64,000 bases of DNA from positions 97-64,096 of the forward strand of contig CAZQLY010000001.1 in the NCBI GenBank assembly GCA_964594455.1, given 5' to 3'. Position numbers and translations under genes: made by a program. The notes under the pieces are model-generated. The model was not told the origin of the DNA and did not search any database. It worked only from the letters and a program-made list of their open reading frames with translations. The stretch is from an uncultured Gammaproteobacteria bacterium. GTDB taxonomy: Bacteria > Patescibacteriota > Patescibacteriia > JAHIZJ01. This document shows, piece by piece, positions 4,907-60,792 of the stretch; position 1 is the first letter of the stretch, and the number at the start of each line of letters is the position of its first letter.

Positions 4907-6097
4907 ATGAAGTATCTTAAAAAAAGCATTAGAGAGATTGATCACTTAGGAAATTATCCGATTATTGATACAATAGAATCCCCGATTGGTCCAAAGGTAA
5001 AAATAAAAGGAAGAGAGTATTTATTATTCAGTTCGAATAGTTATTTAGGCATTACTACAAATCAACGGGTTGTAAAATCTTCAATTAATGCAATAAAAAA
5101 ATATGGTACTGGCTCTGGTTCATCAAGAGTTGTTGCGGGTACATTTGATATTCACACCAAACTTGAAAATGAGATCGCGCTTTTCAAAGAAAAAGAAGCG
5201 GCCATGGTATTAACCAGCGGTTATTCTACAAATGTAAGTTTAATTCCTGCATTAGCCAATGTATTCTCTATATATGGAAAGAAACCAGAAATTGAAACAG
5301 TGATCTTTAGTGACAGACTTAATCACGCTAGTATAATTGATGGAATAAAATTATCCGGTTGTAGGGTAATTGTATACAATCACCGTGATATTATGTCTTT
5401 GGAAAAAGCACTTGAGGAAAACAAGGGTTGTCGCAAATTAATAATAACTGATAGTATTTTTAGCATGGATGGAGACATTGCACCTTTAGATAAAATAGTA
5501 GAATTAAAAAAAAGATACAGTGCCCTATTAATGATAGATGAAGCACACGCAACCGGAGTATTTGGTAAACATGGAAAAGGTATTGCTAACTTTTATAATG
5601 TTAGTAAAGATGTTGATATTATAATGGGCACATTAAGTAAATCTTTCGGGTCTATAGGAGCCTATGTTGCAGGTGATAATGATATTATTCGTTTATTAAA
5701 AGTATCTGTTAGAGGTTATGTTTTTTCTACAGCTCTTACACCACCAGATATTTCTACCAGTAGGGAAGTAATTGCAATACTTAATGAGAATCCCGATTAT
5801 CCTAAAAAGATATTAGATTTAGCTAATTATTTAAGAGTAGGATTAAACAAAATTGGGTTTAACACACTAGGTAGCGAAACACAAATAGTGCCAATACTCA
5901 TTGGTGATATGATCAAATCTTTAAAGTTTCAATCAGAATTAAAAAAAAGAAGAATTATTGCGCCATGTATTCAGTGGCCTGCAGTAGAAAGAGATAAGAG
6001 TAGAATACGTTTTTCGGTAATATTGACACACACAAAAGAAGATATTGACTTTTTAATAAAATCGTGTAGAGAAGTCAAAAACAAACTAAATATTTAA
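4907..6097 (+). CDS. PLP-dependent alpha-oxoamine synthase family acyltransferase (AONS/KBL/SPT/CqsA-like)
   Basis: 396 aa. PLP-lysine motif GTLSKSFGSIGAYVAG. Also ...DEAHATGVFG.. and N-terminal substrate region typical of the class II aminotransferase / alpha-oxoamine synthase family. Confidence 0.75.
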   Translation: MKYLKKSIREIDHLGNYPIIDTIESPIGPKVKIKGREYLLFSSNSYLGITTNQRVVKSSINAIKKYGTGSGSSRVVAGTFDIHTKLENEIALFKEKEAAMVLTSGYSTNVSLIPALANVFSIYGKKPEIETVIFSDRLNHASIIDGIKLSGCRVIVYNHRDIMSLEKALEENKGCRKLIITDSIFSMDGDIAPLDKIVELKKRYSALLMIDEAHATGVFGKHGKGIANFYNVSKDVDIIMGTLSKSFGSIGAYVAGDNDIIRLLKVSVRGYVFSTALTPPDISTSREVIAILNENPDYPKKILDLANYLRVGLNKIGFNTLGSETQIVPILIGDMIKSLKFQSELKKRRIIAPCIQWPAVERDKSRIRFSVILTHTKEDIDFLIKSCREVKNKLNI

Positions 6098-6102
6098 AAT
6101 CT

Positions 6103-9094: not shown

Positions 9095-10711
9095 ATGAAA
9101 GACAATAATCCACAGGGTCTATCCACAATCGCGCTAGTATTAATCACAATAGTTGTGATCGCATCCGCGGGTTTGATTTGGTGGGAATTCAATAAACAGG
9201 AAACCGAAGAAGACAACGTGGTTATTAATAGCCAAACCAATACTACAGAAAATGTTAATTCTTCTGTTAATACCTCAGATTGGCTGACTTATACAAATGA
9301 TGAGTATGGGTATTCACTTAATTACCCAAGCACGTGGTTTATGGAAGAGCGAGTAATAACTTATGAAAATAATAATGTTGATCAGGCATATTGGTATATA
9401 AATATTACTCCCGAAAACCCAAGTCAGAGTGATATTCAAACACAGTTTGCCATCACTCTATTTAATGCCTTGTCAGACGAAGCACCTGATCAAACATTTC
9501 TACGCGTAACGGGTAAAGATATATCTAATCTGAATAAAGAAATAAAGAATGTTGATGGACTTGAAGGATATTATTACAAAGATGTGCCTGCACTTACTCC
9601 ATACAATATGATACTAATTGAAAAAGATAATTTGTTATTTTCTTTAGAACAAGGAGAAATTTCAGAAGACGATTATTTCGATATTATCGATAACGTTCAG
9701 TTTATAGATAGTAATGTAGATACTTCTAGTTGGTTGATTTACACGAATGAGGAGTATGGGTACTCTTTTGAGTATCCACAGAACTATCAAGTGAAGGAAT
9801 TAGTAAATGTTGATGTAGAGGGGTATGTGAATTTAAGTAATAATGATGCAAGTATGAGTTTATATGTCATGGACGGACCGCTTGATCCTATGCATATCCA
9901 AGGTATATATGGAGAAAGGACAGCCGATGAAATAACTACGGTATCTGTTAGTCTCCAAACGGGATATCAATATCGTGAAGGAGATGCGGGGTGTGGTGGA
10001 GATAACGTCCAAACATCATTAACGAATGGCATGATATTAAAGATACAGTTTACTGAATGTATGGATACAACAAATATCCTGTATTCAAATATTGCTTTGC
10101 GCAATCAAATCTTATCAACATTTGTATTTTTTGATAGTTCAGTTGACGTTAATTCCATGTTAAACTCTAACACTAATTCCAATACAAGCAGTAATACAAA
10201 TTCAAGTAATACTAATGAATCAGAAAGCACGGGAGATAAATCATCTGAACCAGAAGATGAAGATATTAATGATTCGTCCTGGTCCGTCTATGAAAATGAT
10301 TTGAGGAAATTTAGGATACAGTATCCCGGTGGCTGGGAGGCTGTTGAGTATCAGGATTATACAGTGGGGTTTCAGCCAGAGGGGTGCTCGTATTATGAAA
10401 CTTATCCAAGCGATACAGCTTATCCGATTCATATTTCGTATAGTACGGATCATAAATCAATCCAATCTATTTTAAAAAACCACCCCACAGATTACTATGA
10501 TAAATATGAACTTGGCAACGTTACTGGTTATGGTATATACGAAGATTATGATGATATTGAACAGGTTTATGCACCGGTGCCCGCAAGCCGAACAGTATTT
10601 ATACAAGGGCAGTATTATGTCGAGACCGAGGATGATTGTACAATGGACAAGGAATATTTTCGTAATACATATTTATCTATGTTAGAGACATTTGAAGTCA
10701 TTGAGGATTAA
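9095..10711 (+). CDS. membrane-anchored exported protein with N/S/T-rich linkers and two copies of a conserved W..Y.N.EYG(Y/F)S..YP module
   Basis: 538 aa. N-terminal TM helix. Repeats DTSDWLTYTNDEYGYSLNYP and DTSSWLIYTNEEYGYSFEYP. Low-complexity SNTNSNTSSNTNSSNTNESE. Confidence 0.55.
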   Translation: MKDNNPQGLSTIALVLITIVVIASAGLIWWEFNKQETEEDNVVINSQTNTTENVNSSVNTSDWLTYTNDEYGYSLNYPSTWFMEERVITYENNNVDQAYWYINITPENPSQSDIQTQFAITLFNALSDEAPDQTFLRVTGKDISNLNKEIKNVDGLEGYYYKDVPALTPYNMILIEKDNLLFSLEQGEISEDDYFDIIDNVQFIDSNVDTSSWLIYTNEEYGYSFEYPQNYQVKELVNVDVEGYVNLSNNDASMSLYVMDGPLDPMHIQGIYGERTADEITTVSVSLQTGYQYREGDAGCGGDNVQTSLTNGMILKIQFTECMDTTNILYSNIALRNQILSTFVFFDSSVDVNSMLNSNTNSNTSSNTNSSNTNESESTGDKSSEPEDEDINDSSWSVYENDLRKFRIQYPGGWEAVEYQDYTVGFQPEGCSYYETYPSDTAYPIHISYSTDHKSIQSILKNHPTDYYDKYELGNVTGYGIYEDYDDIEQVYAPVPASRTVFIQGQYYVETEDDCTMDKEYFRNTYLSMLETFEVIED

Positions 10712-10750
10712 TATAATGATCAATTATTCAATAAATAAGGTATAAAAACC

Positions 10751-11500
10751 ATGGTAGAAAACATTAACCAATCATCACCCAAAGGTAATAAAACAGGCCT
10801 AATCATCCTAATCCTGGCTGCTGTCATTGTAATCGCTGGAGGTTTATGGTACGCCTTGGCTGGAACTGATGAAAATACCAACAATGAAAATAATACCAAC
10901 ACTGTAGCCAATGAGAATGCAAACACGAATGTTAATACCAACACTGCAGCAAACACCAACGCAGAAACAAATTCCAATACCAATACTGCAACCAACACCA
11001 ATTCCTCTGTGGATACTTCTGATTGGCTGACTTATACGAATGAGGAGTATGGGTTTAGTTTTAAATATCCACAGGATTGGAAGCAAGAATATATATTTGA
11101 AAACGATAGTACGAAAACTGTATATGAGAAACCGCTTCAATATTCACTTATTACAAGTGCTGATGGAAATTATGAGCTTGTATTGGGTGTAAAACGTACA
11201 AACGATAAGGGAACAATTTACTATAGAACTGGTATTGGCGCAGGAGACATCAGTGAAGGTGATCCAATAATAATTATGAATACGAGCATAAGTACATGGA
11301 AGCGCGTTTTTGAGGACAAAGTTGTAGAAATTTTCCTTTTTCCAGTTGAAGAGGGAGTTTCACCAAACATAATAAACAATCACGAAGTGATAGCTAGCTT
11401 TAGTATAGTGAATAGTGATACCTTAAATTCACCTAATCTGGTTGATACTAACGAGTATAGAATAGTGCTTTCAATACTACAGTCATTGGAAGTATCATGA
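10751..11500 (+). CDS. paralog of the 9095 family (TM anchor, NTNT-rich linker, W-module)
   Basis: 249 aa. Module VDTSDWLTYTNEEYGFSFKYPQDW. Confidence 0.55.
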   Translation: MVENINQSSPKGNKTGLIILILAAVIVIAGGLWYALAGTDENTNNENNTNTVANENANTNVNTNTAANTNAETNSNTNTATNTNSSVDTSDWLTYTNEEYGFSFKYPQDWKQEYIFENDSTKTVYEKPLQYSLITSADGNYELVLGVKRTNDKGTIYYRTGIGAGDISEGDPIIIMNTSISTWKRVFEDKVVEIFLFPVEEGVSPNIINNHEVIASFSIVNSDTLNSPNLVDTNEYRIVLSILQSLEVS

Positions 11501-11583
11501 GGACCCTCTTATTAGCTAGATAGATATACTATCTAGCTAATTTGGAGGCTTTGTTCTTTCACAACCAAAAAAGGAGTCTTACG

Positions 11584-12162
11584 ATGAAAGGGACTCTGTT
11601 TATTCTAGGGTTGCTGGTCCTGGTACTTTGTTTTCCGGTACCATCAATGGCTGGTGATGAGTCGTGTTGTGGACATTCATCTCCAGGTAACCCTTACCTT
11701 TGCTATGGAGATGGAAATTGTACCTGGTGGGCGTGGCACTGCCGTCAAGATCTACCAGCATGGAGTGGTAATGCTGCAACTTGGCTAGCTAATGCTGAAA
11801 ACGATGACATCGACACTGGAACGACACCACTAGTGGGAAGCATCGCTTGTTTCCCAAATATGGCCGGAGGTGCAGGACACGTTGCCTGTGTTACAGCAGT
11901 ACACCTCGACGGTTCATTTGATGTAACGGAAATGAATTGTTGGCCAGGGTTTAATGGTGTTGATGCAAGGCTCTACTCATCGGGAAGCGCTACAGGCTTC
12001 ATCTACGGCGGCCCGGTCAACATGTATAGTCTCACCTACGCCGGTCAGTCTCCGACAGATCCATCCGGGATTCTGAAGCTCCGTCCTCTGGAGACCGTGA
12101 ACTGCTGGCTGGATGTGAATGTATTGAGCGGTAGTGCCCCGATCTCCAGCATGATACAATAA
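11584..12162 (+). CDS. secreted CHAP-domain amidase/peptidase (peptidoglycan hydrolase)
   Basis: RBS AAAAGGAG upstream. Signal peptide. CHAP catalytic Cys context GNCTWWAWHCRQD and His GAGHVACVTAV. High G+C. Confidence 0.65.
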   Translation: MKGTLFILGLLVLVLCFPVPSMAGDESCCGHSSPGNPYLCYGDGNCTWWAWHCRQDLPAWSGNAATWLANAENDDIDTGTTPLVGSIACFPNMAGGAGHVACVTAVHLDGSFDVTEMNCWPGFNGVDARLYSSGSATGFIYGGPVNMYSLTYAGQSPTDPSGILKLRPLETVNCWLDVNVLSGSAPISSMIQ

Positions 12163-12282
12163 CTCTGTGCACAACTCCTCTTGACCCTTAATTCTCTAAG
12201 ATTTAACATTAAAGTATATGAGAAAGACGGGTCTCAAGAGAGTTCCGTTTTATTTATTTAATAAAGTTATTAAGAAACACCT

Positions 12283-12984
12283 ATGAACAACCTAAACCAA
12301 AAAGGGTTATCAACAACAACTTTAACTATTATTATCCTGGCAATTATTATTATTGCCGGAGGTTTATGGTACGCTCTTTCCGGAACCAATGACAATACCA
12401 ACAATTCTAATAACACCAACACTGTAGCAAATGGGAATGCAAACATGAATGTGAATACCAGCACTGCGGTAAACACCAACACAGAAACAAATTCCAATAC
12501 TAATACTTCAACCAACACCAATTCGTCTGTTGATACTTCGGATTGGGAACTATACGTTAACTCTAATCATAATTTTAGCCTAAAATTTCCCAGAGACTGG
12601 GGGTTTATCAGTGAATTTGATGGTAGTTTTAATCCTGATATTTTGAGCGCATCCTATATGACAACAAGTTCGTTTGTTACGGGTACAGAAGATTCTGGAC
12701 TAATGTTGTCATTTACATTTGGCAGTGGTAAAACGATAAACGATATATTGAATGAGGTTCATACGACCTCTGAAGGAAGTAGCAAACTGGTTATAAGTCA
12801 TAAAGAAGTAACTTTATCCTCAGGTACATCTACTACAGTGGTTAAATACGATCCTACGATAAAAGGACATACAACAGAGTATTTGTTTCAAACTGACTCT
12901 GGTGTGATTGCATTGGGTCTTTTATCAGAGAACGATGAAACTGTTATGGTTTTGAATACCTTTTTATTGGTTAGTAACCCATAA
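12283..12984 (+). CDS. paralog of the 9095/10751 family
   Basis: 233 aa. N-terminus and linker nearly identical at the DNA level to the 10751 gene. Module VDTSDWELYVNSNHNFSLKFPRDW. Confidence 0.55.
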   Translation: MNNLNQKGLSTTTLTIIILAIIIIAGGLWYALSGTNDNTNNSNNTNTVANGNANMNVNTSTAVNTNTETNSNTNTSTNTNSSVDTSDWELYVNSNHNFSLKFPRDWGFISEFDGSFNPDILSASYMTTSSFVTGTEDSGLMLSFTFGSGKTINDILNEVHTTSEGSSKLVISHKEVTLSSGTSTTVVKYDPTIKGHTTEYLFQTDSGVIALGLLSENDETVMVLNTFLLVSNP

Positions 12985-26490: not shown

Positions 26491-26910
26491 ATGGAAAATC
26501 AAAAAATCACAATTTATTCCGATGGAGGCGCCCGTGGTAATCCTGGCCCGGCTGCGATCGGGGTAGTGATATACGATCAGGACAAAAAAATAATTGATAC
26601 AATTTCCGAGTATATTGGAGAAACCACCAATAACCAAGCTGAATACCAAGCTATTTTAAAAGGAATAGAACGATCCCAGGAATTAGGAGCCCAGGAGTTA
26701 GAGTGTTATTTGGACAGTGAGCTGATAGTTAATCAATTACAGTTGAAGTATAAGGTCAAAAATCAGGGATTGGGACCACTTTTCATAAAAACCTGGAATT
26801 TAGTTCAAAAATTTAAAAAGGTTGAGTTTTTTTTCATACCTCGAGAACAGAACAAAGCTGCTGACAAACTGGTTAATGAAGCTTTAGATAAACAAATGAA
26901 AAATAATTAA
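26491..26910 (+). CDS. rnhA: ribonuclease HI
   Basis: IYSDGGARGNPGPAAIGVVI and RNase H catalytic residues. Confidence 0.85.
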   Translation: MENQKITIYSDGGARGNPGPAAIGVVIYDQDKKIIDTISEYIGETTNNQAEYQAILKGIERSQELGAQELECYLDSELIVNQLQLKYKVKNQGLGPLFIKTWNLVQKFKKVEFFFIPREQNKAADKLVNEALDKQMKNN

Positions 26911-29390: not shown

Positions 29391-29433
29391 GAACCACGCA
29401 TTGTGATTAGCTTGGGTGGTTCTTTTTGTTTTT
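29391..29433 (+). terminator. intrinsic terminator (gaaccac...gtggttc + T5)
   Basis: 7-bp stem then T-run after flavodoxin. Confidence 0.5.
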
Positions 29434-29461
29434 GAGTGGCGCGCAAAAAAAGGAGGGTCGC

Positions 29462-29905
29462 GTGAAACGTAACGTTTCCCGATGCGTTTGCGGTCTAATG
29501 TTCTTGTTGGTCATCTTTGGAGCCGTTTCCTGTGGAGGCTACAGCGAGCAGGACGAGCAGGCGATCGCCCAAGGCCGAGCCATCGCCCAGCGTTTCCGTA
29601 CCTGGATCGACCAGAATGGGGAATACCCTGAAAGTGACAGTATGTATGTCGAGATCGGTTTGCGCGGTGGAGAAGCCGCCAATGTCTATACCAGCCTACC
29701 GGTCGTGATCACGTCCTGGAGTAACGTCCCCTGCGGGACGGGAGACTATTTCATCTCTCAGATGATGTCATCCGGGGATGGAGACTTTGTTTTCCAGATT
29801 GATCTGAAGGGGCCGACCGATGACGATGGTTACTCCAAGTGGACTTATCGTTTCCGGCTGGATCGTACCATGTCGGGCGTCATCCAAGAGGAAAAAATGG
29901 ATTAA
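29462..29905 (+). CDS. high-GC hypothetical lipoprotein
   Basis: GTG start with AAGGAGGG RBS. Lipobox AVSCG. About 55% G+C. Confidence 0.5.
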   Translation: MKRNVSRCVCGLMFLLVIFGAVSCGGYSEQDEQAIAQGRAIAQRFRTWIDQNGEYPESDSMYVEIGLRGGEAANVYTSLPVVITSWSNVPCGTGDYFISQMMSSGDGDFVFQIDLKGPTDDDGYSKWTYRFRLDRTMSGVIQEEKMD

Positions 29906-30344: not shown

Positions 30345-30897
30345 AGGCCTTAAGAAGACCGGATGGTTGCTCCATTGTGTGTAATAAGCGATGGGGAGGA
30401 AAGTCCGAACACCCCTGCGTTTTTCAAGGCGTAGGAGCATGGCACCTTCGAAAAGAAGGCGGAAATAAGCAAAGGATACAAAAAGTTCTATAGACTTTTT
30501 GGATTCTAACCAAGCCCAGGGAAAGTGTCACAGAGACTATACCGCTCTCCTTTCCGTTAATGACTTGGCGGATTGGACAGTAAGGGTGAAAAGAGTGGGC
30601 CCACCTAAGCGTGGGATAGCTCGCTTCGGCGGGTAAAGTAAGAGCCCACAGGTTCGGTTAGTAATAACCGAATGTGACAAACCCTGCCTGGTGCAAGACC
30701 GAGTAGGCCCCGACCGTTAAGGCCAGGGGCGGGTAGGTTGCTAGAGCCCCGCAGCAATGTTGGGCCCAGATAGATGACCATCCACCTACGCCCTTCGGGT
30801 TTCGGCGGACGCAGTCCAATAATTTAAGGACAGCGTCACTCGAAGCTCGGAGAGCGTAGAGTGACAGAATTCGGCTTATAGGTCTTCTTAAGGCATT
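30345..30897 (+). ncRNA. rnpB: RNase P RNA (bacterial type), unusually long (about 550 nt)
   Basis: P4/CR-I GGAGGAAAGUCCGAACAC. AGGGUGAAA.G...GGGCCCACC. CAGAUAGAUGACCAUCCAC. ACAGAAUUCGGCUUAUAGGUC. P1 pairing 30347-60 with 30881-94. Confidence 0.8.
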
Positions 30898-38627: not shown

Positions 38628-39187
38628 TTTAAGTTAAAAACAAAATAGCTGTTGTTAGCTGTTTTTTTATTGGTTTTTATGCTACCCCTTGACAAAATCA
38701 GGCAAATGAGCTAAACTACTCGGTTAAACAATAGCCATTTTAAATATTAGGCGCAAAGCTATACAGGATCTGGGAGGGTTTTTTGTTGGCTTCTGGAAAA
38801 TGGGTGCATTTGGCTTCTTACTTTGAGTTCTCTCTTCTAATTAGACCACGGAAGGCGAGATGAAGAAGCCTATTAATCAGCACCCATTTTTTAGGAGCTA
38901 ATATAGGTTCATTGATATTAGTTCTAAGGCGCATATTTGGAGGGGTGGTGGAACACGGCAAGACAAATCGTTCGGGTTTCGACTCGAACTGTCCTGTCAC
39001 TCCATCAGGTACCGTTTCCGGCTTTCTAGTCGGAACAAGCGGGCCAACACCTCCAAATATGTTCTTTTGAGAGCAAATAGCGGATAATCAATCTGTCGGT
39101 GTTTTTTCTGACTGATTGATTATACGTTGTATATAGATTGATGTATTTTCTCTTTTTTTGGTGTCCCTGTTTCAAGGAGGACGTCTC

Positions 39188-39616
39188 ATGTACCAGGTCA
39201 TGGTCGAAGCAAGCTCGAACGGCACTTTCACTCCTGCGCGCTGGCCTCTGATCATCAATGGTGGTCAGAGAGTCGAGAAGACGGCTGAGCAGCTGTCCAA
39301 TCCCCAGGCCACCTTTGCCTGCGGTTGTCACGGCGAGGATGCGAAAGGCGAGCCCTGTCGCTGTAAGGCCGAGCATACGGCCGACAAGATGAAGGCCGCC
39401 GTGGCTCCGGACGGGACGATCGTGGTGGTGTGCAACGAGCACGGCCCGGCAGTGCATCAGCAGTTCAACGTTCCCACTAACCGGACACTGCGCGACGTCC
39501 TCGACAGCATGGTGATTCCGAGACTGAACACCTCGGATGATTTCCACCGCAGTCGCTGGGAGCGTCGTCAGCAGGTCACCGGTCTGAGCAACATCTTCGC
39601 TGAGGCTGCATCGTAG
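39188..39616 (+). CDS. high-GC Cys/His-rich hypothetical protein
   Basis: RBS AAGGAGG 7 nt upstream of ATG 39188. CGCHGE..CRC...VCNEHG. Confidence 0.45.
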   Translation: MYQVMVEASSNGTFTPARWPLIINGGQRVEKTAEQLSNPQATFACGCHGEDAKGEPCRCKAEHTADKMKAAVAPDGTIVVVCNEHGPAVHQQFNVPTNRTLRDVLDSMVIPRLNTSDDFHRSRWERRQQVTGLSNIFAEAAS

Positions 39617-39775
39617 CATCGATCTGATCTCTCCTCGGAGCAGTTAGTATTCGCTGACTGCTCCACCTACCTGAGTGTTTTACAAATAATGGTAAAATGT
39701 TCAGGTAGGGCTTTGCTCTTTTCTAAATAGATGTGGTGAGACGACAACAAGAACTCCTAAGCAGGAGATAGAGTC

Positions 39776-40027
39776 ATGGACGCATGTCAAATTATAGGCT
39801 TGATCCTAGGAATACTTGTCCTTGGTGCCTTCCTACGTTGGCGCCGGAGTATCCTAGACGACCCTCAGGGTTTCCAACTGACAATGATGTTTTTTTGCGC
39901 CTTTGCTGGATGTGTCTTGGAGGTTGCCAACATCTTGGAGGAAAACGGTGCCGGATTCGGCATTGCAATTGCCGGCATCGCCTTTTTCTTCTTCTATGGC
40001 TTTTTTGCCATGTTGGAAAGCCGTTAG
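39776..40027 (+). CDS. high-GC small membrane protein (2 TM)
   Basis: RBS GCAGGAGA. 83 aa. Confidence 0.4.
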   Translation: MDACQIIGLILGILVLGAFLRWRRSILDDPQGFQLTMMFFCAFAGCVLEVANILEENGAGFGIAIAGIAFFFFYGFFAMLESR

Positions 40028-40226
40028 CCAATTTCGGGGCAGATTGTTACACAGTTTGCCCCACCTACCTGAGTGTTTTATTTTTTAGAACCCTCAGATA
40101 GGGTATAAAAGCCCGATCTGAAGACTTGAGTCATAAATCGTTCTTTTAAACATCAACTCAAGTCTTCCGATTGGTCTTTTCAACAGAACCAGAAGCGAAC
40201 ACAACCCAAGGAAGGGGGTGATTCAG

Positions 40227-40376
40227 GTGAAGGATCCATGTAGTAGTCAGAACCAGTACAACCGCATGAGGTGGTATGAGTATGCTGGGCTGGCCTTGCT
40301 GGCTCTGAGCGTGGCTGTTCTACTCTATACCAGATTCTTCCAACCGGAGGTGTGGGCCCATGCCTTTCGCTTCTAA
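40227..40376 (+). CDS. possible 49-aa small membrane protein (GTG start)
   Basis: RBS AGGGGGTG. Hydrophobic segment AGLALLALSVAVLLY. Followed by terminator gggaggg...ccctccc. Confidence 0.25.
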   Translation: MKDPCSSQNQYNRMRWYEYAGLALLALSVAVLLYTRFFQPEVWAHAFRF

Positions 40377-40622
40377 GCGCTACAACTAGGGAGGGTAACA
40401 GTTAGGCTGACCCTCCCCTCGTATTTTTATCAATTATCGTATGCGAGGATGATCATCCTCGCTTGCGAAAGGAATTAGATGATTATCAGCCAATTCGAGG
40501 TTTAAGTCTTGAGCTGGTTGCTAATCAAGTAGGTTAGCGATGGCTGGCGCAGAACGTCAGTACGGCTCTTTTCATAGACACTCCAGGGCGTCGATCGTTC
40601 CGGTGTCTTGTAAAAAGGGGGT

Positions 40623-41180
40623 TTGATGATGTATGAGAAAATGGATCCTGTGGAACGTAAACGGAGAATCCATTGGAACCTTGCCTTACACATGGCAACG
40701 CTCTTTGCCATTCTTTCTTTAACGGTTCTGGGATATGTAATATTCCAAACCCCAACTGTTTTTAGTGACTTTTTCAGCAACCAGAAGGCGCTGATTTTCA
40801 CTCTCATCTCAGGATTTGTCCTAGGTTTGTCTCTCTGCGTTGTTCGCGAACCAGAGATGAATCGCAGAAGGTTCTATAACACTTTTCACCTCGTGGCCGG
40901 TTCTGCGACTCAGGAGGCAGTAACAGAATTCTTGACTGCTATAGCAGAGACGATCCGGAGAGACGATGAACGGCTTATCGAGCTTCAGATAAGACTAACG
41001 AATGATGAAGGTGCTGATCTCGATGAGTTGAGAAGGGGAATTGATAGACTGGAAGAGGAGTACAGAAGACTGAGGGACGACTTCTGGTATGCGCATAGGA
41101 TGGCTCAAAAGTGCGGTTTCAAGACACTCCCACGCTGGAAGTTCTACCTCAATAAACAGCTCGTGGCCCAGTTGAAGTGA
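40623..41180 (+). CDS. hypothetical membrane protein with cytoplasmic coiled-coil tail
   Basis: 185 aa. Two TM, then charged helical region. Confidence 0.45.
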   Translation: MMMYEKMDPVERKRRIHWNLALHMATLFAILSLTVLGYVIFQTPTVFSDFFSNQKALIFTLISGFVLGLSLCVVREPEMNRRRFYNTFHLVAGSATQEAVTEFLTAIAETIRRDDERLIELQIRLTNDEGADLDELRRGIDRLEEEYRRLRDDFWYAHRMAQKCGFKTLPRWKFYLNKQLVAQLK

Positions 41181-41523
41181 TAGGGGCAGGATGATCTTTG
41201 CGGGGCGGATCTGCTTATTTGCGGATTCGCTCCTTTTTCGTTTTAAAACGCAAGCGGACAAACGTTTGTCCGCTTACAGAAGTAGGAAATTTTTCTCTTC
41301 ACAAATTTAAATAGGGTAGTATAATTAGTAATTGAAACCCAAGTTATACACACCCTTTGACACTTTGATTCCTGCCGATAACGAGGGACTCGATGTTATC
41401 GGACTGTAAAGATAAAATCCTTTGTCCTACTTTTTTTATAGGACTGTTCTTTTGATTTGGATTTTCAGATTTCAGTCTTTCAAATCGACATCACTCTCTC
41501 AAATCGGCAGAAATCAGGGTATC

Positions 41524-53460: not shown

Positions 53461-53597
53461 TACAATTAAAATATATGAAATCAAGAAGCAACAACCAAGC
53501 CAATAATAATAACCAGTTCTGACTGGCTTGAGTTAGTTTTGTATAAAGATGAGCCAGTCATAGAACGACTGGTCGTTTTAGTTATTGGCCTCAGTGT

Positions 53598-53670
53598 TCC
53601 GGGATAGTTTAATTGGTAAAACCCTGCACTGTTAATGCAGTGACTCCAGGTTCAAGTCCTGGTCCCGGAG
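53598..53670 (+). tRNA. tRNA-Asn (anticodon GUU)
   Basis: Acceptor UCCGGGA/UCCCGGA. Anticodon loop CUGUUAA. T-arm CCAGG-UUCAAGU-CCUGG. Discriminator G. CCA not encoded. Confidence 0.85.
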
Positions 53671-53678
53671 CATTGAGG
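53664..53678 (+). repeat. 15-bp direct repeat cccggagcattgagg (copy 1, tRNA-Asn 3' end); copy 2 at 54709-54723
   Basis: Exact 15-nt match. att-like. Confidence 0.6.
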
Positions 53679-53947
53679 CTTATTTATTATAGAATCTTGA
53701 CATTTACTGAATAATATGATATCATGTTCTGTCTGTTCATTACACATACTATTTACTTGTCACGTTTTACAACGGGATAAACTCCGTGGCCATAGCTAAA
53801 AGCGACCGGAGGTCGCCCTGAACTTGATTCAGGGTCTATGAGATTTTGAAACAAGTTCAGAATGACAAACTGGACGGTCGTTTCTAGCTATGGCTGCACG
53901 GTGTAGCCACAAGCAAAAACGGCCAAAAAACATAAGGAGGTCTGACC

Positions 53948-54571
53948 ATGTCGGAAGGCATGCTCGGCAATCTCTCGCTCTCCGAGGTACGGGGACCGAA
54001 GAACGACCTGGATGAGAAACTCGCCAGCAAGCAAGGCCACATGTGGCTTCGCGCCCTGAACCGTTTTCTCCGCCGGGAGAATCCGTGGGGTATTCCTCAG
54101 AACATCGAGGTGACCACAAGAGGCCGCACGGGCGAACAGTGTATAACCTCTCTGGAGGAGCAGAACTTCCGCCTTGGAAGCTATGGGAAAGAACTGCTCC
54201 GAAGCGAGGCGTTTATTGCCACCAACGGCACCATCTACAATCTCGTCGTCATCTATGGTAACGAGTTCGAAGACAGTGAACGTACGAACGCCAACATCAG
54301 AGCCGAAGGGACGCTACGCGGCTATCTCACCCCTCCGATGGAAGTCGCGCCTTACCTGCGTGAAATGTTCTCGGATGAAGACCTGGAACAGATAGGCATC
54401 TGGGCGCTTGTCGTTATGCACGAACCCGTTAACGCTTCGGACGGCTTTGCGCTCGTGCTCGGTGACATCCGCGGCGTTGAGGGTCGATGGCTGGGCACGT
54501 ACGACGGTCACCCTGGCGGCAGGTGGAGTCGTGAGTACGGTTTCGTATTCCTCGCTCCCGCAAGTAATTAG
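53948..54571 (+). CDS. high-GC hypothetical protein (island cargo)
   Basis: RBS AAGGAGG. 207 aa. About 58% G+C. 230-nt structured leader. Confidence 0.5.
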   Translation: MSEGMLGNLSLSEVRGPKNDLDEKLASKQGHMWLRALNRFLRRENPWGIPQNIEVTTRGRTGEQCITSLEEQNFRLGSYGKELLRSEAFIATNGTIYNLVVIYGNEFEDSERTNANIRAEGTLRGYLTPPMEVAPYLREMFSDEDLEQIGIWALVVMHEPVNASDGFALVLGDIRGVEGRWLGTYDGHPGGRWSREYGFVFLAPASN

Positions 54572-54638
54572 CTCTTAGAAATTGTGTTCTTAGGTCTCCT
54601 TGACTTTAGAACTCAGCTCTTAGGACTTTGTCCGCTCG

Positions 54639-54695
54639 ACCCGCGCTGTCCTCCTACGCTAAAGCTACGGAGGATGGCGCGGGTGTTTTTTATTT
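54639..54695 (+). terminator. strong nested intrinsic terminator (acccgcgc...gcgcgggt + T-run)
   Basis: Read directly. Confidence 0.6.
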
Positions 54696-54966
54696 TCAAA
54701 AAGTAGCCCCCGGAGCATTGAGGTCAAATGACCATTGACCGAGTTTATGAATGCTGCTAAAATAATTTTGAAACTTATACACATGTCTAACACCAAGCGC
54801 CAACTTAACCGAATTATTAGAAAAGACATTCGTTTTTTCTTTTCTTTTGGTTTTGCGGGCGGTGGAGCATAGAGACAAAGTAGCTACTAGGACACCAAGT
54901 CCAATGACTACCGCCCAAAAGACCAGGCGGTGTTTTTGTTTGCACCTTAAATCAAGGAGGAGAGAA

Positions 54967-55353
54967 ATGAGCTTTGTTAGACATCCTGGTTTTACTGATC
55001 GGGAGTTGAGAGCGCTGAAAGGAGGTGAACAGATGGATTCGGCATTCTGTGGAGATCTGGGCTGGGAAGACGATGACAATCTGCGAGTGGTTAGAGGACG
55101 TATAGTGGATCGAAGTGCACGGGCCGAAGAGCTATGCCGTCAGGCGGCTACCGAAGATCGGGAAGAAGATCTAAGACAAGTCTTAGTAGCAGAGCTGTCC
55201 AAGGATGAGCGGGGTGGTCGCCGAGCCTCCAGATTCTGGCTGACCGTGCCTTTTGGTGAGGCCCCGGGGGTTACTATTCGTATCGAGCCTGACGGCAGGT
55301 GTATCGAAGATGCTACCGGCAGAGTAATCCACCGGCTGGGTAAACAAGTTTAG
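54967..55353 (+). CDS. high-GC hypothetical protein (128 aa)
   Basis: RBS AAGGAGGAG 5 nt upstream of ATG 54967. The longer ORF-track start 54847 is not supported. Confidence 0.45.
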   Translation: MSFVRHPGFTDRELRALKGGEQMDSAFCGDLGWEDDDNLRVVRGRIVDRSARAEELCRQAATEDREEDLRQVLVAELSKDERGGRRASRFWLTVPFGEAPGVTIRIEPDGRCIEDATGRVIHRLGKQV

Positions 55354-55476
55354 TTGAGAAAATTGTTCATTCATTGAAAAGCGACCTAATTTCGGCCGCT
55401 TTTTTTTATTTCTTGATTTAAAGTGTAATATTTCATATAATTTAAGAAGAGTATTAAGCCTTTTATTAAAAAACTT

Positions 55477-58400
55477 ATGAAAAAAGCGACCTGGTTAAAA
55501 ATTATTCCAGCCATTGCCTTAGTAGCTCTTTTGGGGCTATTTTTTTATCTTTATGAGCCAGACACTAAAACCACTGAGCCGGGAGACAAACCATTCGTGC
55601 CAGTCAGTATTGAAAACGCTGAAGGCAATTTCAAGCTAACTGCAGAATCTCAAGATAGTCTGGGCATAGAGCCGGACACCAAATTTATCCTGACTAGTCA
55701 GGAAGATGTTTCTAAATCAGAGGTAGAAGAAAGCATAGCTGTTGTTCCGGCTCTAGACTTTGAAGTAAAGGAAACATCAGAAAACAACTTTGAAATAATT
55801 CCGACAGCCTCGTTGACCGAGAACCAGATTTATAAATTTTCTATCGGTACAACAGTAGACGGCCAGGCTTCAGTTGCTTTAGCGGCTGAGGAAGAAACGG
55901 ACGTTACAGAATATCGTTGGGCTTATCAGGTCAAGAAAAACGTGAAGATTACCGGTACGCTGCCGCGTGATAAGGGCACTGGTGTCCCAACCAATTCTGG
56001 AATTGAAGCGACTTTCTCTACAGACACCTTCTATGACTATGATCAGTATTTTGAAATTATGCCTGATGTAAATGGCACTTTTGAAAAGCATAAGAGAACA
56101 GCAGTTTTTGTTCCAGAGGCATTGGAGTCCGATACCTTATACACAGTTACCATCAAAGCTGGTTTGCCATTTGATGGCACTGATGATGTATTGGCTGATG
56201 ATTATACGTTTAAATTTGAGACTACCTCCGGAAGGCAGGCTGGTTATAATTATGATTATTTCTCTTTTCGTGATTCAGTCTATGATTATACTGATCAGTC
56301 AGAACCAGTGCTAGAAGTATATAATTATCCTAAAGATACTGAGCGAGAGTTCACGGTCTATCAGTATCCCAATTATGACACTTTTGCCAATGCTTTATCA
56401 GACTATGTTCAGTATCCAGCCTGGGCGTACTATTCGAGAAATACTTTTACCACATCGACTGATGGACTGACTCAGGTTTTGAATTTCAAGGCTGTGCCAG
56501 AAACTTACCAGTATCGCTATTATGTGGTTTTGCCCAGTACTCTGGAAAATGGATACTATTTGATTGAGACAAAAACCTCTGATCAAACCATTCAGTCATG
56601 GATCCAAGTCAGCGATCAAGCCGCATATTTAAGCGTCAGTAAAATAAACACTTTAGTTTGGTTAAACGATTTAGAGAGCCAGCAGCCGATTGCAGGCGGC
56701 ACAGTAACCATACCTGGGCTTGAGTTGGAAGAAACAACGAATGAGTATGGTATTGCTTTTTTTGAAACTCCGGATGAATTGTCCAGTGATGAACCCGACA
56801 AATCGTATATATTTACTCTAACTGGATCAGATGGGACGAAAACTGTAATTCCTGGTGCCCAGAGCTCGTCATATTACGATTATTCATCAGAAAGCCGCAG
56901 CGACGAATTCTGGCAATATTTGTATGTTGATCGCCCGATTTATCAAAAGTCCGACACAGTAAATTTTTGGGGATTAGCCAAGTTGCGTGGTAGTGAATCA
57001 ATTCCCAGCCAGGCCACGGCCCAGCTTATAGGTTTTGATTATACTAGTTATTATGGTGAAACTACTAATATAGCTGAAACGACAGTCGAGTTAACCGATA
57101 CTGGCACGTATTTAGGTAAGCTATCTTTCCAAAACCTTATTCCCGGCTATTATACCCTTAAGATATTGGTGGATGGGGCAGAAGTTAGCCGATCCAGTGT
57201 TTATATACAAAACTACGTTAAACCCAGCTATATGATAGAGCTGGGTACTGCCAAGAAGGTAATAGTAGAAGATGAGAACAATACGGTTACGGTTAGTTCA
57301 CAGTTTTTTGAAGGCACGCCTGTGCCAAGTGTTGATTTGACCTACAATAGCAGTTTTGGGTCGGGCGGGTTGACCACCGATGAGAATGGTAGTGGATCGT
57401 TTACTTTGACAGCCGATGGAGTATCCAACTATTCCGAAACAGATTATGTCCGGGTTTATGCTGATTCAGCTGAAGCGGCAGATATCAGTTCCGAAGTTCG
57501 CTACCGGGTGTACCCGTCAGATATGTGGCTAGAATATGATTCTGAGGTGGATGAACAAAAAGCCAGCCTGGAGATGGATTTGAATTATTTAGACTTGAAA
57601 GCCATGAACAAGGATGATTATGATCTTTGGAGTGATGAGATTTATTCCGGTCCAGTATCAGATCATAAGATAACTGGTACGGTTAAAAAGGTGGTATACG
57701 ATAAAATTGAGACGGGTCAATATTATGATTTTATCAATAAAGTTACTCGCAAGACCTATCGCTATGATCGACGACTAGAGCCCTACACCAGTTTTGATAT
57801 AACAACTGATACTAATGGCGCGGCATTGTATGAATTCGATGTAGAAAAAGACAGTTCTTATGAAATAGAGACTAGTTATACTGATGATAACAACAGAACA
57901 GTAACCAGCAAACATTTCCTTTGGAGCGGTTATCGTTATTACGATGCCGATTATTCTGATATGGTGCGACTTCAGAATACCGACGAAGATACGATTTATA
58001 GTTTGGATGACCCGGTAAACTTTGCTTTCCTAAAAGGTGATGAACTGTTACCAGACAATGAACAGCCCAATAATTATTTGTATTTCCAAGCCAAAGCCGG
58101 TATCCAAGAATATTGGGTTAATCCGTCATCCAGCTACTCCTTTGATTTTTCTGCCAGCAATATTCCCAATACCTATGTTTATGGTGTGTGGTTTGATGGA
58201 TCCAATTATTCAGCCACGGATTACTATTACTACAGCTATGGGTACGGGATCCAGTACGATACCAGTGATAGTGAAATCAATGTAGAAGTTTCTTCTGACC
58301 AAAGTCAGTACCAACCAGGGGAAGAAGTAACTTTGACCGTAAATACATCTGATTCCAACAGCCAGCCTATATCCGCCCGAGTGAATTTAAATCTAGTTGA

Positions 58401-60792
58401 TGAGGCTATTTATGCTTTGCGTGATGAAGCTGTTGATCCTTTGTCTGCCGTGTACTCTAATGTTTCTTCAGGAATATTGCGTACTTATATTTCCCATGAA
58501 GAAAGCGATCTGGCGGCACCGATGGCTGAGCGCGGAGGGTGTTTTCTCGAGGGGACGCAGGTTTTGATGGGTAATGGCGGAAGTAGACCGATAGAAGAAA
58601 TTTCAGTCGGTGAATATGTCTGGACCAGATTCTCTCCGTCAAACGATCAGCTAGTCACGGCACGCGTTGCTGAAAGGTTTGAGCACATTGTAGACACGGT
58701 GATTGCAGTCAACAATGAGTTGTTCATAACACCTAACCATATACTTTGGCTCAATGGTAACTGGCAGCCAGCCGAGAATATCAAACCGGGCGATAAGTTA
58801 GTCAACAATAAGGGTGAGACCGTGTTAGTCAAAACGGTAGAATACCAAAAGGGATTATTTAAGGTCTACAATCTCCACATTGATGATCAACACACTTTTT
58901 TTGCCTCAGGTATTTACGTGCATAATGACAAGGCTGGTGCCAGGAAGAATTTCCAGGACGCAGCGCTGTTTGAAGAAGTTGAGACGGGCCTCCTCGGGCA
59001 AGCCACTACAACTTTCACATTGCCTGACAATATCACTTCCTGGCGCGTGACCGCTCAAGGCATCAGCGATGATTTGGATGTTGGCAGTACCACCGAATTA
59101 ATACCGGTAACGCTACCACTCTTTGTTGAAACAAATATCGCCCGTGAGTATTTAACGGGGGATCAGCCGATAATAAAAGTCTATGGTTATGGCAGTGATT
59201 TGGAGTCGGGTGACGCTGTAGATTTAAATGTCAGCATTGAGGACCTAAATTACGATACGACGCAAAACGGTCAGGCTTTTGAACCATCCAGTTTTGAACT
59301 GCCGGAAATGACTAGCGGAGTTTATGACGTGTATATTACTGCCACGGCTGGAAATCAAGAGGACACAATTTTGAAGAAGCTGAGCGTGATTGATAGTCAT
59401 TGGGAAAAAGAATCAGCGAATTATTATACCCTAGAAGAGGGTTTGCAGATTGAAGGCGCCGATGACCGACAAACAACACTGTTGTTTATGGATCGCAACC
59501 GAGGATACTTTTATCGCGATTTGTTAAGACTGTATTACAGCTGGGGCGAACGGGTAGACCAAAAATACGCCAAGAAATTAGCTGCGGAGTACATGAATAC
59601 ATATTTTGAAGATAGCTATAATGTTGAAGATTTTGATGGATCAGTTTATCAGACATCAGATGGTGGAATTTCCATCCTGCCGTATTCGTCATCAGAATTT
59701 GAGTTGTCAGCGCATTTAGCAAATCTGGCACCTGGAGAATTTGATGCCAGCGCTCTGACCAACTATTTCACTAACTTTGTAACGAGTGAAGATGCAAATC
59801 TGGAAGAAGTAATTATTGCTTATTACGGTTTGGCAAATTTAGGTGAGGCGGTATTAAATCAAGTTATCCAGATATACGAAAATAATGAGATCAGCGATCA
59901 ACTAAAATTGTATGTGGCCCTGACTCTGGACAAATTAGGGGCTGGTGAATATGCCCGGGTGATTTACAACGATGTTGTTAACCGGCTGGCTGAGACTCAA
60001 GATCCTTATATCAGATTACTTCTAGGAGAAGATGAAGATGATTATTTGAAATACACAGTTTTGGCGTCTATTTTAGCCAACAGTCTTTCGACAGATGAAG
60101 AGAGTGGTTTATATGAGTATGTCAGAAGCAAATGGACTGAGGAAATTTTGATAAACGTTGAAAAATTGATTTATCTACGACAGGCCTTACCCACTGCCGA
60201 AGCCGGACCCGTCAGCTTCAAATACACCGTTGGTAGTCGCTCGGATTTAGTTACCCTAGAGAAATACAAGAAATACAAACTATTATTGTCTCCAGATGAA
60301 CTGGATCAAATAGAGTTTTCTGACATTTCTGGAACTGTGGGTGTGATCAGTTATTATACCGAGCCGGCTAATCCTGATTTGGTGACGGTTGACAATCAAG
60401 TAGGTATATCACGATCCTATCAGGTTGTTGGTGGCGATAGAACTACCAATTTTTCTGAGGGTGACATAGTGCTGGTTACTCTAGATCACCAGATTAATAA
60501 TAACGCCATTGACGAGACATACCAAGTGACTGACTATCTGCCCAGTGGCTTAACTGTGATTAGCGAACCATTCTCTCGACTTCAGTACGGAGCCTATGAA
60601 GCCAATTGGCCTTATTTGATTGATGGACAGAAAGTCGCATTCCGGGCTTGGAAAGGCTGGGATAAATTGATCAAGTATTATGCTAGGGTAAATAACCAAG
60701 GCGAGTTCATGACTGATCCAGTGATGATCCAGGGTTACAGAGTGAAAGACAGTCTCAATATGTCGGATACTGTCACAGTAACCATAGAATGA
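55477..60792 (+). CDS. alpha-2-macroglobulin-like (MG-domain) protein with mini-intein/Hint (BIL-type) domain inserted at the bait-region position; membrane anchored
   Basis: 1771 aa. N-terminal TM. A2M hallmark RKNFQDAALFEE...LPDNITSWRV downstream of the bait region. No CxEQ thioester. Hint blocks CFLEGTQVLMGNG, TPNH, VYNLHIDDQHTFFASGIYVHN at nt 58540-58926. +1 residue is Asp. Confidence 0.7.
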   Translation: MKKATWLKIIPAIALVALLGLFFYLYEPDTKTTEPGDKPFVPVSIENAEGNFKLTAESQDSLGIEPDTKFILTSQEDVSKSEVEESIAVVPALDFEVKETSENNFEIIPTASLTENQIYKFSIGTTVDGQASVALAAEEETDVTEYRWAYQVKKNVKITGTLPRDKGTGVPTNSGIEATFSTDTFYDYDQYFEIMPDVNGTFEKHKRTAVFVPEALESDTLYTVTIKAGLPFDGTDDVLADDYTFKFETTSGRQAGYNYDYFSFRDSVYDYTDQSEPVLEVYNYPKDTEREFTVYQYPNYDTFANALSDYVQYPAWAYYSRNTFTTSTDGLTQVLNFKAVPETYQYRYYVVLPSTLENGYYLIETKTSDQTIQSWIQVSDQAAYLSVSKINTLVWLNDLESQQPIAGGTVTIPGLELEETTNEYGIAFFETPDELSSDEPDKSYIFTLTGSDGTKTVIPGAQSSSYYDYSSESRSDEFWQYLYVDRPIYQKSDTVNFWGLAKLRGSESIPSQATAQLIGFDYTSYYGETTNIAETTVELTDTGTYLGKLSFQNLIPGYYTLKILVDGAEVSRSSVYIQNYVKPSYMIELGTAKKVIVEDENNTVTVSSQFFEGTPVPSVDLTYNSSFGSGGLTTDENGSGSFTLTADGVSNYSETDYVRVYADSAEAADISSEVRYRVYPSDMWLEYDSEVDEQKASLEMDLNYLDLKAMNKDDYDLWSDEIYSGPVSDHKITGTVKKVVYDKIETGQYYDFINKVTRKTYRYDRRLEPYTSFDITTDTNGAALYEFDVEKDSSYEIETSYTDDNNRTVTSKHFLWSGYRYYDADYSDMVRLQNTDEDTIYSLDDPVNFAFLKGDELLPDNEQPNNYLYFQAKAGIQEYWVNPSSSYSFDFSASNIPNTYVYGVWFDGSNYSATDYYYYSYGYGIQYDTSDSEINVEVSSDQSQYQPGEEVTLTVNTSDSNSQPISARVNLNLVDEAIYALRDEAVDPLSAVYSNVSSGILRTYISHEESDLAAPMAERGGCFLEGTQVLMGNGGSRPIEEISVGEYVWTRFSPSNDQLVTARVAERFEHIVDTVIAVNNELFITPNHILWLNGNWQPAENIKPGDKLVNNKGETVLVKTVEYQKGLFKVYNLHIDDQHTFFASGIYVHNDKAGARKNFQDAALFEEVETGLLGQATTTFTLPDNITSWRVTAQGISDDLDVGSTTELIPVTLPLFVETNIAREYLTGDQPIIKVYGYGSDLESGDAVDLNVSIEDLNYDTTQNGQAFEPSSFELPEMTSGVYDVYITATAGNQEDTILKKLSVIDSHWEKESANYYTLEEGLQIEGADDRQTTLLFMDRNRGYFYRDLLRLYYSWGERVDQKYAKKLAAEYMNTYFEDSYNVEDFDGSVYQTSDGGISILPYSSSEFELSAHLANLAPGEFDASALTNYFTNFVTSEDANLEEVIIAYYGLANLGEAVLNQVIQIYENNEISDQLKLYVALTLDKLGAGEYARVIYNDVVNRLAETQDPYIRLLLGEDEDDYLKYTVLASILANSLSTDEESGLYEYVRSKWTEEILINVEKLIYLRQALPTAEAGPVSFKYTVGSRSDLVTLEKYKKYKLLLSPDELDQIEFSDISGTVGVISYYTEPANPDLVTVDNQVGISRSYQVVGGDRTTNFSEGDIVLVTLDHQINNNAIDETYQVTDYLPSGLTVISEPFSRLQYGAYEANWPYLIDGQKVAFRAWKGWDKLIKYYARVNNQGEFMTDPVMIQGYRVKDSLNMSDTVTVTIE

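Follow-up and report, generated by a model that had tools for sequence, protein, structure and literature searches.

A single gene lies between direct repeats at the 3' end of a tRNA-Asn gene

We analyzed a window of 64,000 nucleotides (nt) from a 199-kb patescibacterial contig (CAZQLY010000001.1 of GenBank assembly GCA_964594455.1). All positions given without a locus name are those of the window. Immediately downstream of a tRNA-Asn(GTT) gene, between two copies of a 15-nt direct repeat, is a 1.03-kb unit (53679 to 54708) with a single open reading frame (ORF). An initial annotation, made from the sequence alone, had described this unit as a high-G+C insert with no integrase, flanked by repeats resembling attachment (att) sites. 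It recognized a genuine cargo ORF but missed its identity. We find that the ORF encodes a variable protein (VP), the target of a diversity-generating retroelement (DGR), and that the rest of the DGR is missing from the window. The features of the locus are listed here. L001 to L036 are related loci or contigs from other assemblies, which were compared with the cassette in the window.

53598 to 53671, plus strand: tRNA-Asn (GTT), the apparent integration target (ARAGORN; Rfam tRNA, 69.7 bits)
53664 to 53678, plus strand: left direct repeat CCCGGAGCATTGAGG, attL-like, comprising the tRNA 3' acceptor strand and trailer
53697 to 53725, plus strand: sigma-70-like promoter, TTGACA-17-TATCAT with an extended -10 TG, aligned with the promoters of L005 and L007
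53786 to 53897, plus strand: conserved hairpin of the 5' untranslated region (UTR), from folding and an alignment of 14 loci
53934 to 53940, plus strand: ribosome-binding site (RBS) AAGGAGG, in a context, GGAGGNCTGACCATG, that is conserved across loci
53948 to 54571, plus strand: variable-protein (DGR target) gene, 207 amino acids, with a conserved core at residues ~51 to 206
54430 to 54566, plus strand: variable region (VR), whose conserved 3' end, GGTTTCGTATTCCTCGCTCCCGCAAG, resembles an initiation of mutagenic homing (IMH) site; placed in register with the pairs of VR and template repeat (TR) of L001, L004, L005, L006, L011, and L036
54569 to 54633, plus strand: post-VR conserved element, with repeated CTCTTAG/CCTTGG-type motifs around a small GGTC..GAC hairpin
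54639 to 54691, plus strand: intrinsic terminator, a 16-base-pair (bp) G+C-rich stem (54639 to 54684) and a T-run
54709 to 54723, plus strand: right direct repeat, attR-like, 2 nt past the last base homologous to complete DGR loci
54735 to 55405, plus strand: neighboring unit outside the repeats, with a promoter-like site (54735 to 54763), ORF2 (54967 to 55353), and a terminator (55376 to 55404)

The segment between the repeats is predicted to be a complete transcription unit with promoter, 5'-UTR hairpin, strong RBS, 207-amino-acid ORF, and terminator. The promoter-like site matches the consensus at 11 of 12 positions. The leader of ~215 to 220 nt folds at -79.7 kcal/mol (z = -5.25 versus shuffles), and the terminator folds at -34.6 kcal/mol (z = -5.65). 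All of these elements lie where the initial annotation had placed them, and its value for the G+C content of the ORF (~58%) was close to the 57.2% that we obtained, versus ~42% in the rest of the window. However, this value says little about transfer. The G+C content of the variable-protein gene is 51 to 64% in every locus, complete-DGR loci included, with flanks at 40 to 61%. High G+C is a family trait at all loci and is therefore weak evidence of recent transfer. We rejected it as a standalone marker of foreign origin because it is found family-wide whatever the flanks, and alone it gives no date for the insertion.

The repeat CCCGGAGCATTGAGG occurs exactly at 53664 to 53678 and at 54709 to 54723, with no further copy in the window. 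Simple arithmetic gives ~1e-4 as the number of times that any one 15-mer should recur exactly in 64 kb, both strands counted. The tRNA ends at 53671 according to ARAGORN and at 53670 according to Rfam, so the repeat consists of the last 7 to 8 nt of tRNA-Asn and 7 to 8 nt of trailer. The sequences that flank the tRNA (53587 to 53597 and 53671 to 53681) are complementary and lengthen the acceptor stem by ~10 bp in the precursor; the tRNA with its flanks (53585 to 53682) folds with z = -7.6. The trailer half of the repeat, ATTGAGG, takes part in this pairing with the 5' flank. Therefore, the host context of the left copy is functional. For the right copy there is no pairing partner, and yet it is perfect, which suggests a recent event. 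The flank pairing may be a feature of pre-tRNA processing in these genomes. A similar pairing was seen by eye, not by folding, around the tRNA-Asn of a distant relative (L013, around 3857 to 3929).

We also aligned the flanks across loci. Homology to the related loci starts at the promoter (~53695), 18 nt past the left repeat, and covers the promoter, leader hairpin, RBS, gene, post-VR element, and terminator. With L036 it runs on to "aaagtag" at 54700 to 54706, 2 nt short of the right repeat. Beyond ~54706, complete DGRs continue into the conserved start of their TR-containing region. Because the homology stops just inside the repeats on both sides, the repeats are the true ends of a foreign segment, and the discrete insert proposed in the initial annotation is borne out. 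That annotation had also considered that the repeat might belong to a conserved functional element, such as a shared terminator. It lies outside the terminator and outside every element conserved among the related loci.

The gene belongs to a family of DGR variable proteins

Homologues of the gene are linked to DGR machinery. In L001 and L004, precomputed Pfam annotations place bAvd on the opposite strand and then an RVT_1 reverse transcriptase (RT), both 3' of the gene. By tblastn, Avd and RT were found in L001 and L004 as well as in L005, L008, L011, and L020, which have the same layout (VP, TR, Avd, RT), and L026 and L036 have VP, TR, and Avd up to the contig end. DGR target status is thereby seen in at least eight related loci from independent assemblies.

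The TR, ~500 nt downstream, repeats the last ~130 nt of the gene with 83 to 85% identity (L001 and L004). In five cognate VR/TR pairs (L001, L004, L005, L006, and L011), 12 to 23 of the 33 to 36 TR adenines are mismatched, versus only 1 to 3 of ~100 positions that are not adenines. The L036 pair has mismatches at 15/25 TR adenines and at 7/111 other positions. Mismatch specific to adenines is the signature of mutagenic retrohoming. Therefore, the family is a DGR variable-protein family. An assembly artifact is an unlikely source of the VR/TR relationship, which was seen in eight independent assemblies. The VRs end ...CCCGCAAGTA and the TRs end ...CCCGCAACTC. The TR of L008 (6846 to 7045) has 17 adenines, versus 33 to 36 in its relatives, and its mismatches are not adenine specific; this DGR is otherwise complete and has apparently been reset or begun to degenerate.

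The family is dispersed over unrelated chromosomal sites and phage-like contigs. The surroundings of the gene are phage-like in L001, L004, and L032, where there are genes for a large serine recombinase, a terminase, a ParB-methylase, and ERF. The complete DGRs of L005, L008, L011, and L020 are directly between housekeeping genes, with no repeats, tRNA, or integrase.

The 207-amino-acid protein has 35 homologues at 42 to 71% identity, all in Patescibacteria. A family profile searched against 1.84 billion proteins (E <= 1e-3) yielded 3173 cluster representatives with a common core at residues ~51 to 206, and the window protein retains every invariant family residue. There was no match for it, or for the 128-amino-acid ORF2 product, in Pfam, PHROGs, NCBIfam, or PADLOC. 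Eight relatives had no Pfam domain, no relative was found in IMG/VR, and a PDB sequence-profile search returned nothing. Its AlphaFold2 model has a predicted local distance difference test (pLDDT) score of 85. We infer that the cargo is a ligand-binding protein with a diversified C-terminal surface.

The copy in the window is an orphan DGR target

The cassette closest to that of the window is L036 (82% identical DNA). When the window VR was compared with the L036 TR, mismatches were found at 13 of 25 TR adenines (52%) and at 12 of 111 other positions (11%). As far as sequence goes, this suggests that the window VR was diversified from a related TR. The window copy also keeps the VR-type end (...CCCGCAAGTA) and the post-VR element. 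The latter, ~60 nt long, is conserved in 10 loci, complete and orphan alike, and is putatively functional.

Searches for the remaining DGR components and for a recombinase covered the 64-kb window. There was no second VR copy or TR-like repeat in it, and tblastn found no RT or Avd. None of 45 ORFs scanned across it has an RT domain or a recombinase domain (Phage_integrase, Resolvase, or Recombinase), which includes the single ORF of the insert and agrees with the annotated lack of an integrase. An RNase H/RVT_3 protein (26491 to 26910) was considered as a DGR RT and set aside as an RNase HI-type enzyme. No Avd or RT pseudogene debris was found between 54572 and 54966. With the VR kept and the TR, Avd, RT, and recombinase all absent from 64 kb, the window gene is therefore an orphan DGR target.

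Orphans are common in the family (L002, L009, L027, L028, L030, and L033), and there are also intermediates of decay. L006 lacks an RT but retains the TR and a truncated Avd, and L007 keeps only ~150 nt beyond the terminator. A possible explanation of the window locus, though one that we hold only tentatively, is therefore decay. The element that entered at tRNA-Asn would have been a complete DGR cassette (VP-TR-Avd-RT), or else a prophage or island large enough to carry both that cassette and an integrase, and the stretch from the terminator to attR would later have been deleted, leaving a frozen gene. This fits a series that runs from the complete L004 through L006 and L007 to VP only. It also fits the adenine-depleted TR of L008 and the phage-like contexts of the gene in L001, L004, and L032. 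Moreover, decay of this kind is a known origin of the att-flanked remnants called cis-mobilizable elements (CIMEs; PMC5704250). However, the deletion must have begun no more than ~20 nt from the terminator and stopped no more than 2 nt from attR, and it left no debris of Avd or RT. A second genome, L030, independently shows the same tight promoter-to-terminator packing, in two successive cassettes.

Targets and TRs do occur apart in this family. The VR of one orphan (L009 6324 to 6466, in a Kerfeldbacteria metagenome-assembled genome) corresponds to the TR of L004 (6016 to 6158), which is on a phage-like contig in another assembly. Mismatches are found at 20 of 34 adenines, whereas 99 of 102 non-adenine positions match. 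It thus seems that, within one DGR lineage, the target can be on a different replicon, or in a different genome, from the TR. Remote targets have been documented for cellular DGRs (PMC5758913), as has a cellular DGR clade specific to Patescibacteria (PMC8144416).

tRNA linkage in other genomes and the probable mode of insertion

Flanking repeats were sought around the complete DGR cassettes and the other orphans, and they were found only in L030. This 335-kb contig (61% G+C) has two more copies of the tRNA-Trp 3' end beyond the tRNA itself, GGTTCGATTCC... at 5714 to 5732 and one at ~6697 to 6722. They have diverged (79 to 89% identical) and enclose the whole of a homologous cassette, promoter and terminator included. 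A second unit (~6946 to 7530), apparently frameshifted, has its own promoter, a VR-like end, and the same post-VR motif. Over 5505 to 7630, tRNA-end copies delimit successive promoter-gene-terminator units.

We consider it reasonable to read the window locus as an integration footprint. Site-specific recombination into the tRNA-Asn 3' end would have inserted the cassette, with the 15-bp repeat as the crossover (att core). Neither the insert nor the window encodes a recombinase, which therefore would have acted in trans or been lost since. Excision would leave an attB in which ...GGTCCCGGAGCATTGAGG is joined to TCAAATGACC, and a circular attP in which ...AAAAAGTAGCC is followed by CCCGGAGCATTGAGG and then by CTTATTTATT. 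The variable protein might now be a frozen variant. Alternatively, it might be a remote target, with the rewriting done by a DGR at another place in the genome or by one that an infecting phage carries. There are two variants of this mechanism. In one, the 1.03-kb single-gene unit itself integrated. This is favored by the 2-nt precision of the right end, the lack of Avd and RT debris, and the L030 array. In the other, what integrated was a full DGR cassette or a larger island, and decay followed. This is favored by the decay series (L006 and L007) and by the origin of CIMEs (PMC5704250).

A different origin of the repeat would be an insertion resembling transposition or the action of a casposase, or else an illegitimate (homology-facilitated) one. 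The repeat might then be a target-site duplication or a join at a microhomology instead of the att core of a tyrosine recombinase. The repeat includes 7 nt of host-specific trailer that pair with the tRNA 5' flank, and a staggered cut would need no host sequence to be carried by the element. At the 3' ends of tRNAs, casposons make duplications of 14 to 15 bp, and Patescibacteria are considered to depend on the uptake of DNA. However, we found no terminal inverted repeats that join the insert ends (53679 to 53720 versus 54670 to 54708) and no transposase or Cas1-like gene, which makes a target-site duplication less likely. On the same grounds we rejected a casposon, or a transposon with a long target-site duplication, as the identity of the element. 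The repeats of L030 also argue against duplication: each has ~25 nt, is diverged, and copies the tRNA 3' end as a whole, as is typical of an element-borne attP that replaces the end of the tRNA. Overall, we regard this origin of the repeat as improbable.

We also considered that the gene might be native, inherited vertically behind tRNA-Asn, with the repeat a coincidence or a local duplication that has no role in mobility. The family-wide high G+C content is no sign of recent import, and L027 also has a family member behind its tRNA-Asn. However, the exact 15-mer would hardly arise by chance, and it is exactly at the homology boundary. In addition, the relative L013 has a tRNA-Asn without the cassette, and the family is not tied to one chromosomal site. 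This makes a native gene very unlikely.

Several findings count against insertion of an orphan DGR cassette by site-specific recombination. There is no candidate recombinase in the 64-kb window. In L027, a family member that is 30% identical and shares the leader hairpin begins 6 nt downstream of tRNA-Asn and has no distal repeat. The orphans L002, L007, L009, L028, and L033 have no flanking repeats. The orphans other than those of L030 and L027 adjoin housekeeping genes on both sides, with no repeats, tRNA, or integrase. The initial annotation had proposed that relatives carrying the segment without repeats would speak against integration. Such relatives exist (L002, L007, L009, and L028), as does L030 with its tRNA-Trp repeats, and integration at a tRNA is therefore one route among several. 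The empty tRNA-Asn site that it had suggested looking for was not found in related genomes, because even the nearest relative, L013, is only 64% identical in the flanking gene. L013 has a different gene 59 nt after its tRNA-Asn and no cassette. The flanking gene encodes an EamA protein whose closest relatives are 64 to 66% identical, and downstream synteny is lost. The intermediates L006 and L007 indicate that orphans can arise by deletion. Finally, Foldseek searches of PDB and BFVD with the predicted structure returned no C-type-lectin or other known fold. Taking these points into account, we estimate a probability of roughly 0.7 that the unit is a self-sufficient orphan DGR variable-protein cassette that was inserted site specifically at the tRNA-Asn 3' end.

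Three further observations concern the flanks of particular loci. A Logan contig (L012) starts 16 nt past the left repeat. We dropped it as evidence of a breakpoint in the population because a neighboring contig of the same run ends inside the EamA gene, so that the break reflects coverage. In L002, the 3' end of an AP-endonuclease gene (4283 to 4356) is duplicated ~255 nt downstream (4612 to 4690) in a diverged, G+C-richer copy. The duplicate is just before the orphan cassette, which looks like an insertion footprint in the 3' end of a gene. In L033/L034 (ERZ25039515 contig_65449), the cassette, its FtsH neighbor, and tRNA-Ile occur twice in inverted orientation, which is either an inverted duplication or an assembly artifact.

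The leader hairpin is a candidate cis-regulatory RNA motif

The initial annotation had noted a highly structured leader. The fold is real, but that its hairpin is a conserved RNA with covariation had been missed. An outer stem of 20 bp, GTGGCCATAGCT...AGCTATGGCTGC, pairs 53786 to 53806 with 53877 to 53897. The hairpin is found upstream of the variable-protein gene in 14 distinct loci, with a loop of 7 to ~100 nt. An inner hairpin insert is specific to the window locus, and GTAGCC follows the hairpin at 53902 to 53907. In the 14-locus alignment, compensatory double changes were seen at 12 of 20 pairs and pairing in 94% of cells, and none of 500 shuffles did as well. A covariance model gave one match per locus, always upstream of a variable-protein gene, and no other match in the window. 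There was no Rfam match for the leader, even at E <= 1. Judged by sequence, the hairpin is a candidate new cis-regulatory RNA motif that is specific to these genes.

The consensus is GTAGTCATAGCC...GGCTATGACTAC, then GGTAGTCCGCTGGCA, and corresponds to 53786 to 53907 of the window. Other sites include L001 3089 to 3170, L002 4897 to 4979, L004 4863 to 4980, L005 5805 to 5977, L009 5740 to 5822, L028 5898 to 5981, and L033 5908 to 5994. We also considered an alternative helix between the hairpin 3' arm and a downstream GTAGTC. It is 94% paired, but its covariation does not exceed that of shuffles, and we do not claim it.

Comparison with known systems

What the analysis chiefly adds is the identity of the cargo, which is an orphan DGR variable-protein cassette within tRNA-end repeats. 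It combines known kinds of element, remote DGR targets and att-flanked elements without an integrase, and is not a new category. The closest parallels are the remote targets of DGRs (Treponema, Legionella-type, and lineage-4 [Wu et al. 2018, PMC5758913]; Patescibacteria clade 2 [Roux et al. 2021, PMC8144416]). Like these, the window gene has a 3'-terminal VR, an IMH-like end, and a downstream cis element. It is also away from any RT, and its homologues are adenine mutagenized from a TR that lies next to Avd and an RT. Unlike them, it has no cognate TR or RT in the 64-kb window, its family has no Pfam match or recognizable C-type-lectin fold (Foldseek, solved and viral-predicted structures), and it forms a unit of one gene, bounded by repeats, at a tRNA. 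The unit also has a conserved 5'-UTR hairpin, which is not described for DGRs.

CIMEs are att-flanked remnants derived from integrative and conjugative elements (ICEs) or from integrative and mobilizable elements (IMEs) which lack genes for integration or transfer, are often at tRNA 3' ends, and can form tandem arrays (PMC5704250). The window insert likewise has attL- and attR-like tRNA-end repeats and no recombinase, with a second unit in tandem (ORF2 here; two cassettes in L030). However, it is only 1 kb, with one gene and no trace of decayed mobility genes, and its mobilization would be by analogy. There are no ICE or IME genes in the window, and the host is a patescibacterium, where ICEs and IMEs are not characterized. 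The islands and prophages that tyrosine integrases direct to tRNAs are similar in that their inserts, too, are distinct in composition and have a repeat of the tRNA 3' end at their bounds. The window insert differs in having no integrase and in being smaller by one to two orders of magnitude.

Integron cassettes are also single-gene units that can accumulate in tandem at one site, with the recombinase encoded elsewhere. However, the window unit has its own promoter and terminator, no 3' attC, and no IntI. Its palindrome is in the 5' UTR, inside the unit and not at a boundary, and its repeats are derived from a tRNA. We therefore rejected identity with an integron cassette. A looser resemblance might still hold. 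Patescibacteria could carry integrase-less single-gene variable-protein cassettes (promoter, leader hairpin, VR-bearing ORF, homing element, and terminator) that are captured serially at tRNA 3' ends by a recombinase in trans and rewritten in trans by one DGR, possibly phage borne. The outcome would be arrays of diversifiable genes anchored at tRNAs, comparable to integrons in that they would gather hypervariable proteins. The match between the orphan VR of L009 and the TR of L004 supports this general picture, although we find it doubtful.

To our knowledge, prokaryotes have no system other than DGRs for the targeted hypervariation of proteins. Patescibacteria are among the richest DGR hosts, but we know of almost nothing on how their DGR target genes spread, are regulated, or pass between elements. 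Here, a minimal, precisely bounded target gene is at a tRNA att site without machinery, and there are parallels in two other genomes. It appears that genes of this type move or persist as units of one gene. The locus points to movement at the level of the cassette or to highly stereotyped decay, and the finding would gain weight if cassette-level mobility or diversification in trans were true. The gene also opens up a large uncharacterized family (~3,200 cluster representatives) that has a confident predicted structure and no recognizable fold, and its leader hairpin, supported by covariation, is a candidate regulatory RNA. Surveys that demand an RT beside the VR would miss orphans of this kind.

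The neighboring unit and other features of the window

The second high-G+C ORF, ORF2, is present just outside the right repeat as annotated. Its product of 128 amino acids is an ORFan whose only match among 5.8 billion proteins is itself, and its G+C content is 50 to 56%. The unit might be an older cassette at the same tRNA site. We rejected ORF2 as a second VR gene because its local similarity to the VR, CCTGRCGGCAGGTG, does not exceed that of shuffles.

Downstream is a gene (55477 to 60792) for an alpha-2-macroglobulin-like protein of 1771 amino acids. A Hint/mini-intein-like domain (PT-HINT, Vint, and Hom_end_hint; residues 1021 to 1151) is between its bait-region and A2M domains, and this insert (~58537 to 58929) coincides with a local bump in G+C content.

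A second high-G+C island (38700 to 41250) contains small ORFs without a Pfam match (39158 to 39616, 39776 to 40027, and 40623 to 41180). There, a 24-nt direct repeat (39659 to 39682 and 40057 to 40080; 96% identical) brackets an ORF of 83 amino acids, and its first copy is one arm of an 18-bp hairpin. Another ORF without a Pfam match (29426 to 29905; 159 amino acids, 53% G+C) is upstream of the RNase P RNA gene (30351 to 30894), at a distance of a few hundred bases. Near the start of the window, a 76-nt direct repeat (296 to 371 and 986 to 1061) is 97% identical, with its copies 690 nt apart. Repeated segments of 67 to 201 nt within neighboring genes (9214 to 12546) are probably repeated protein domains.

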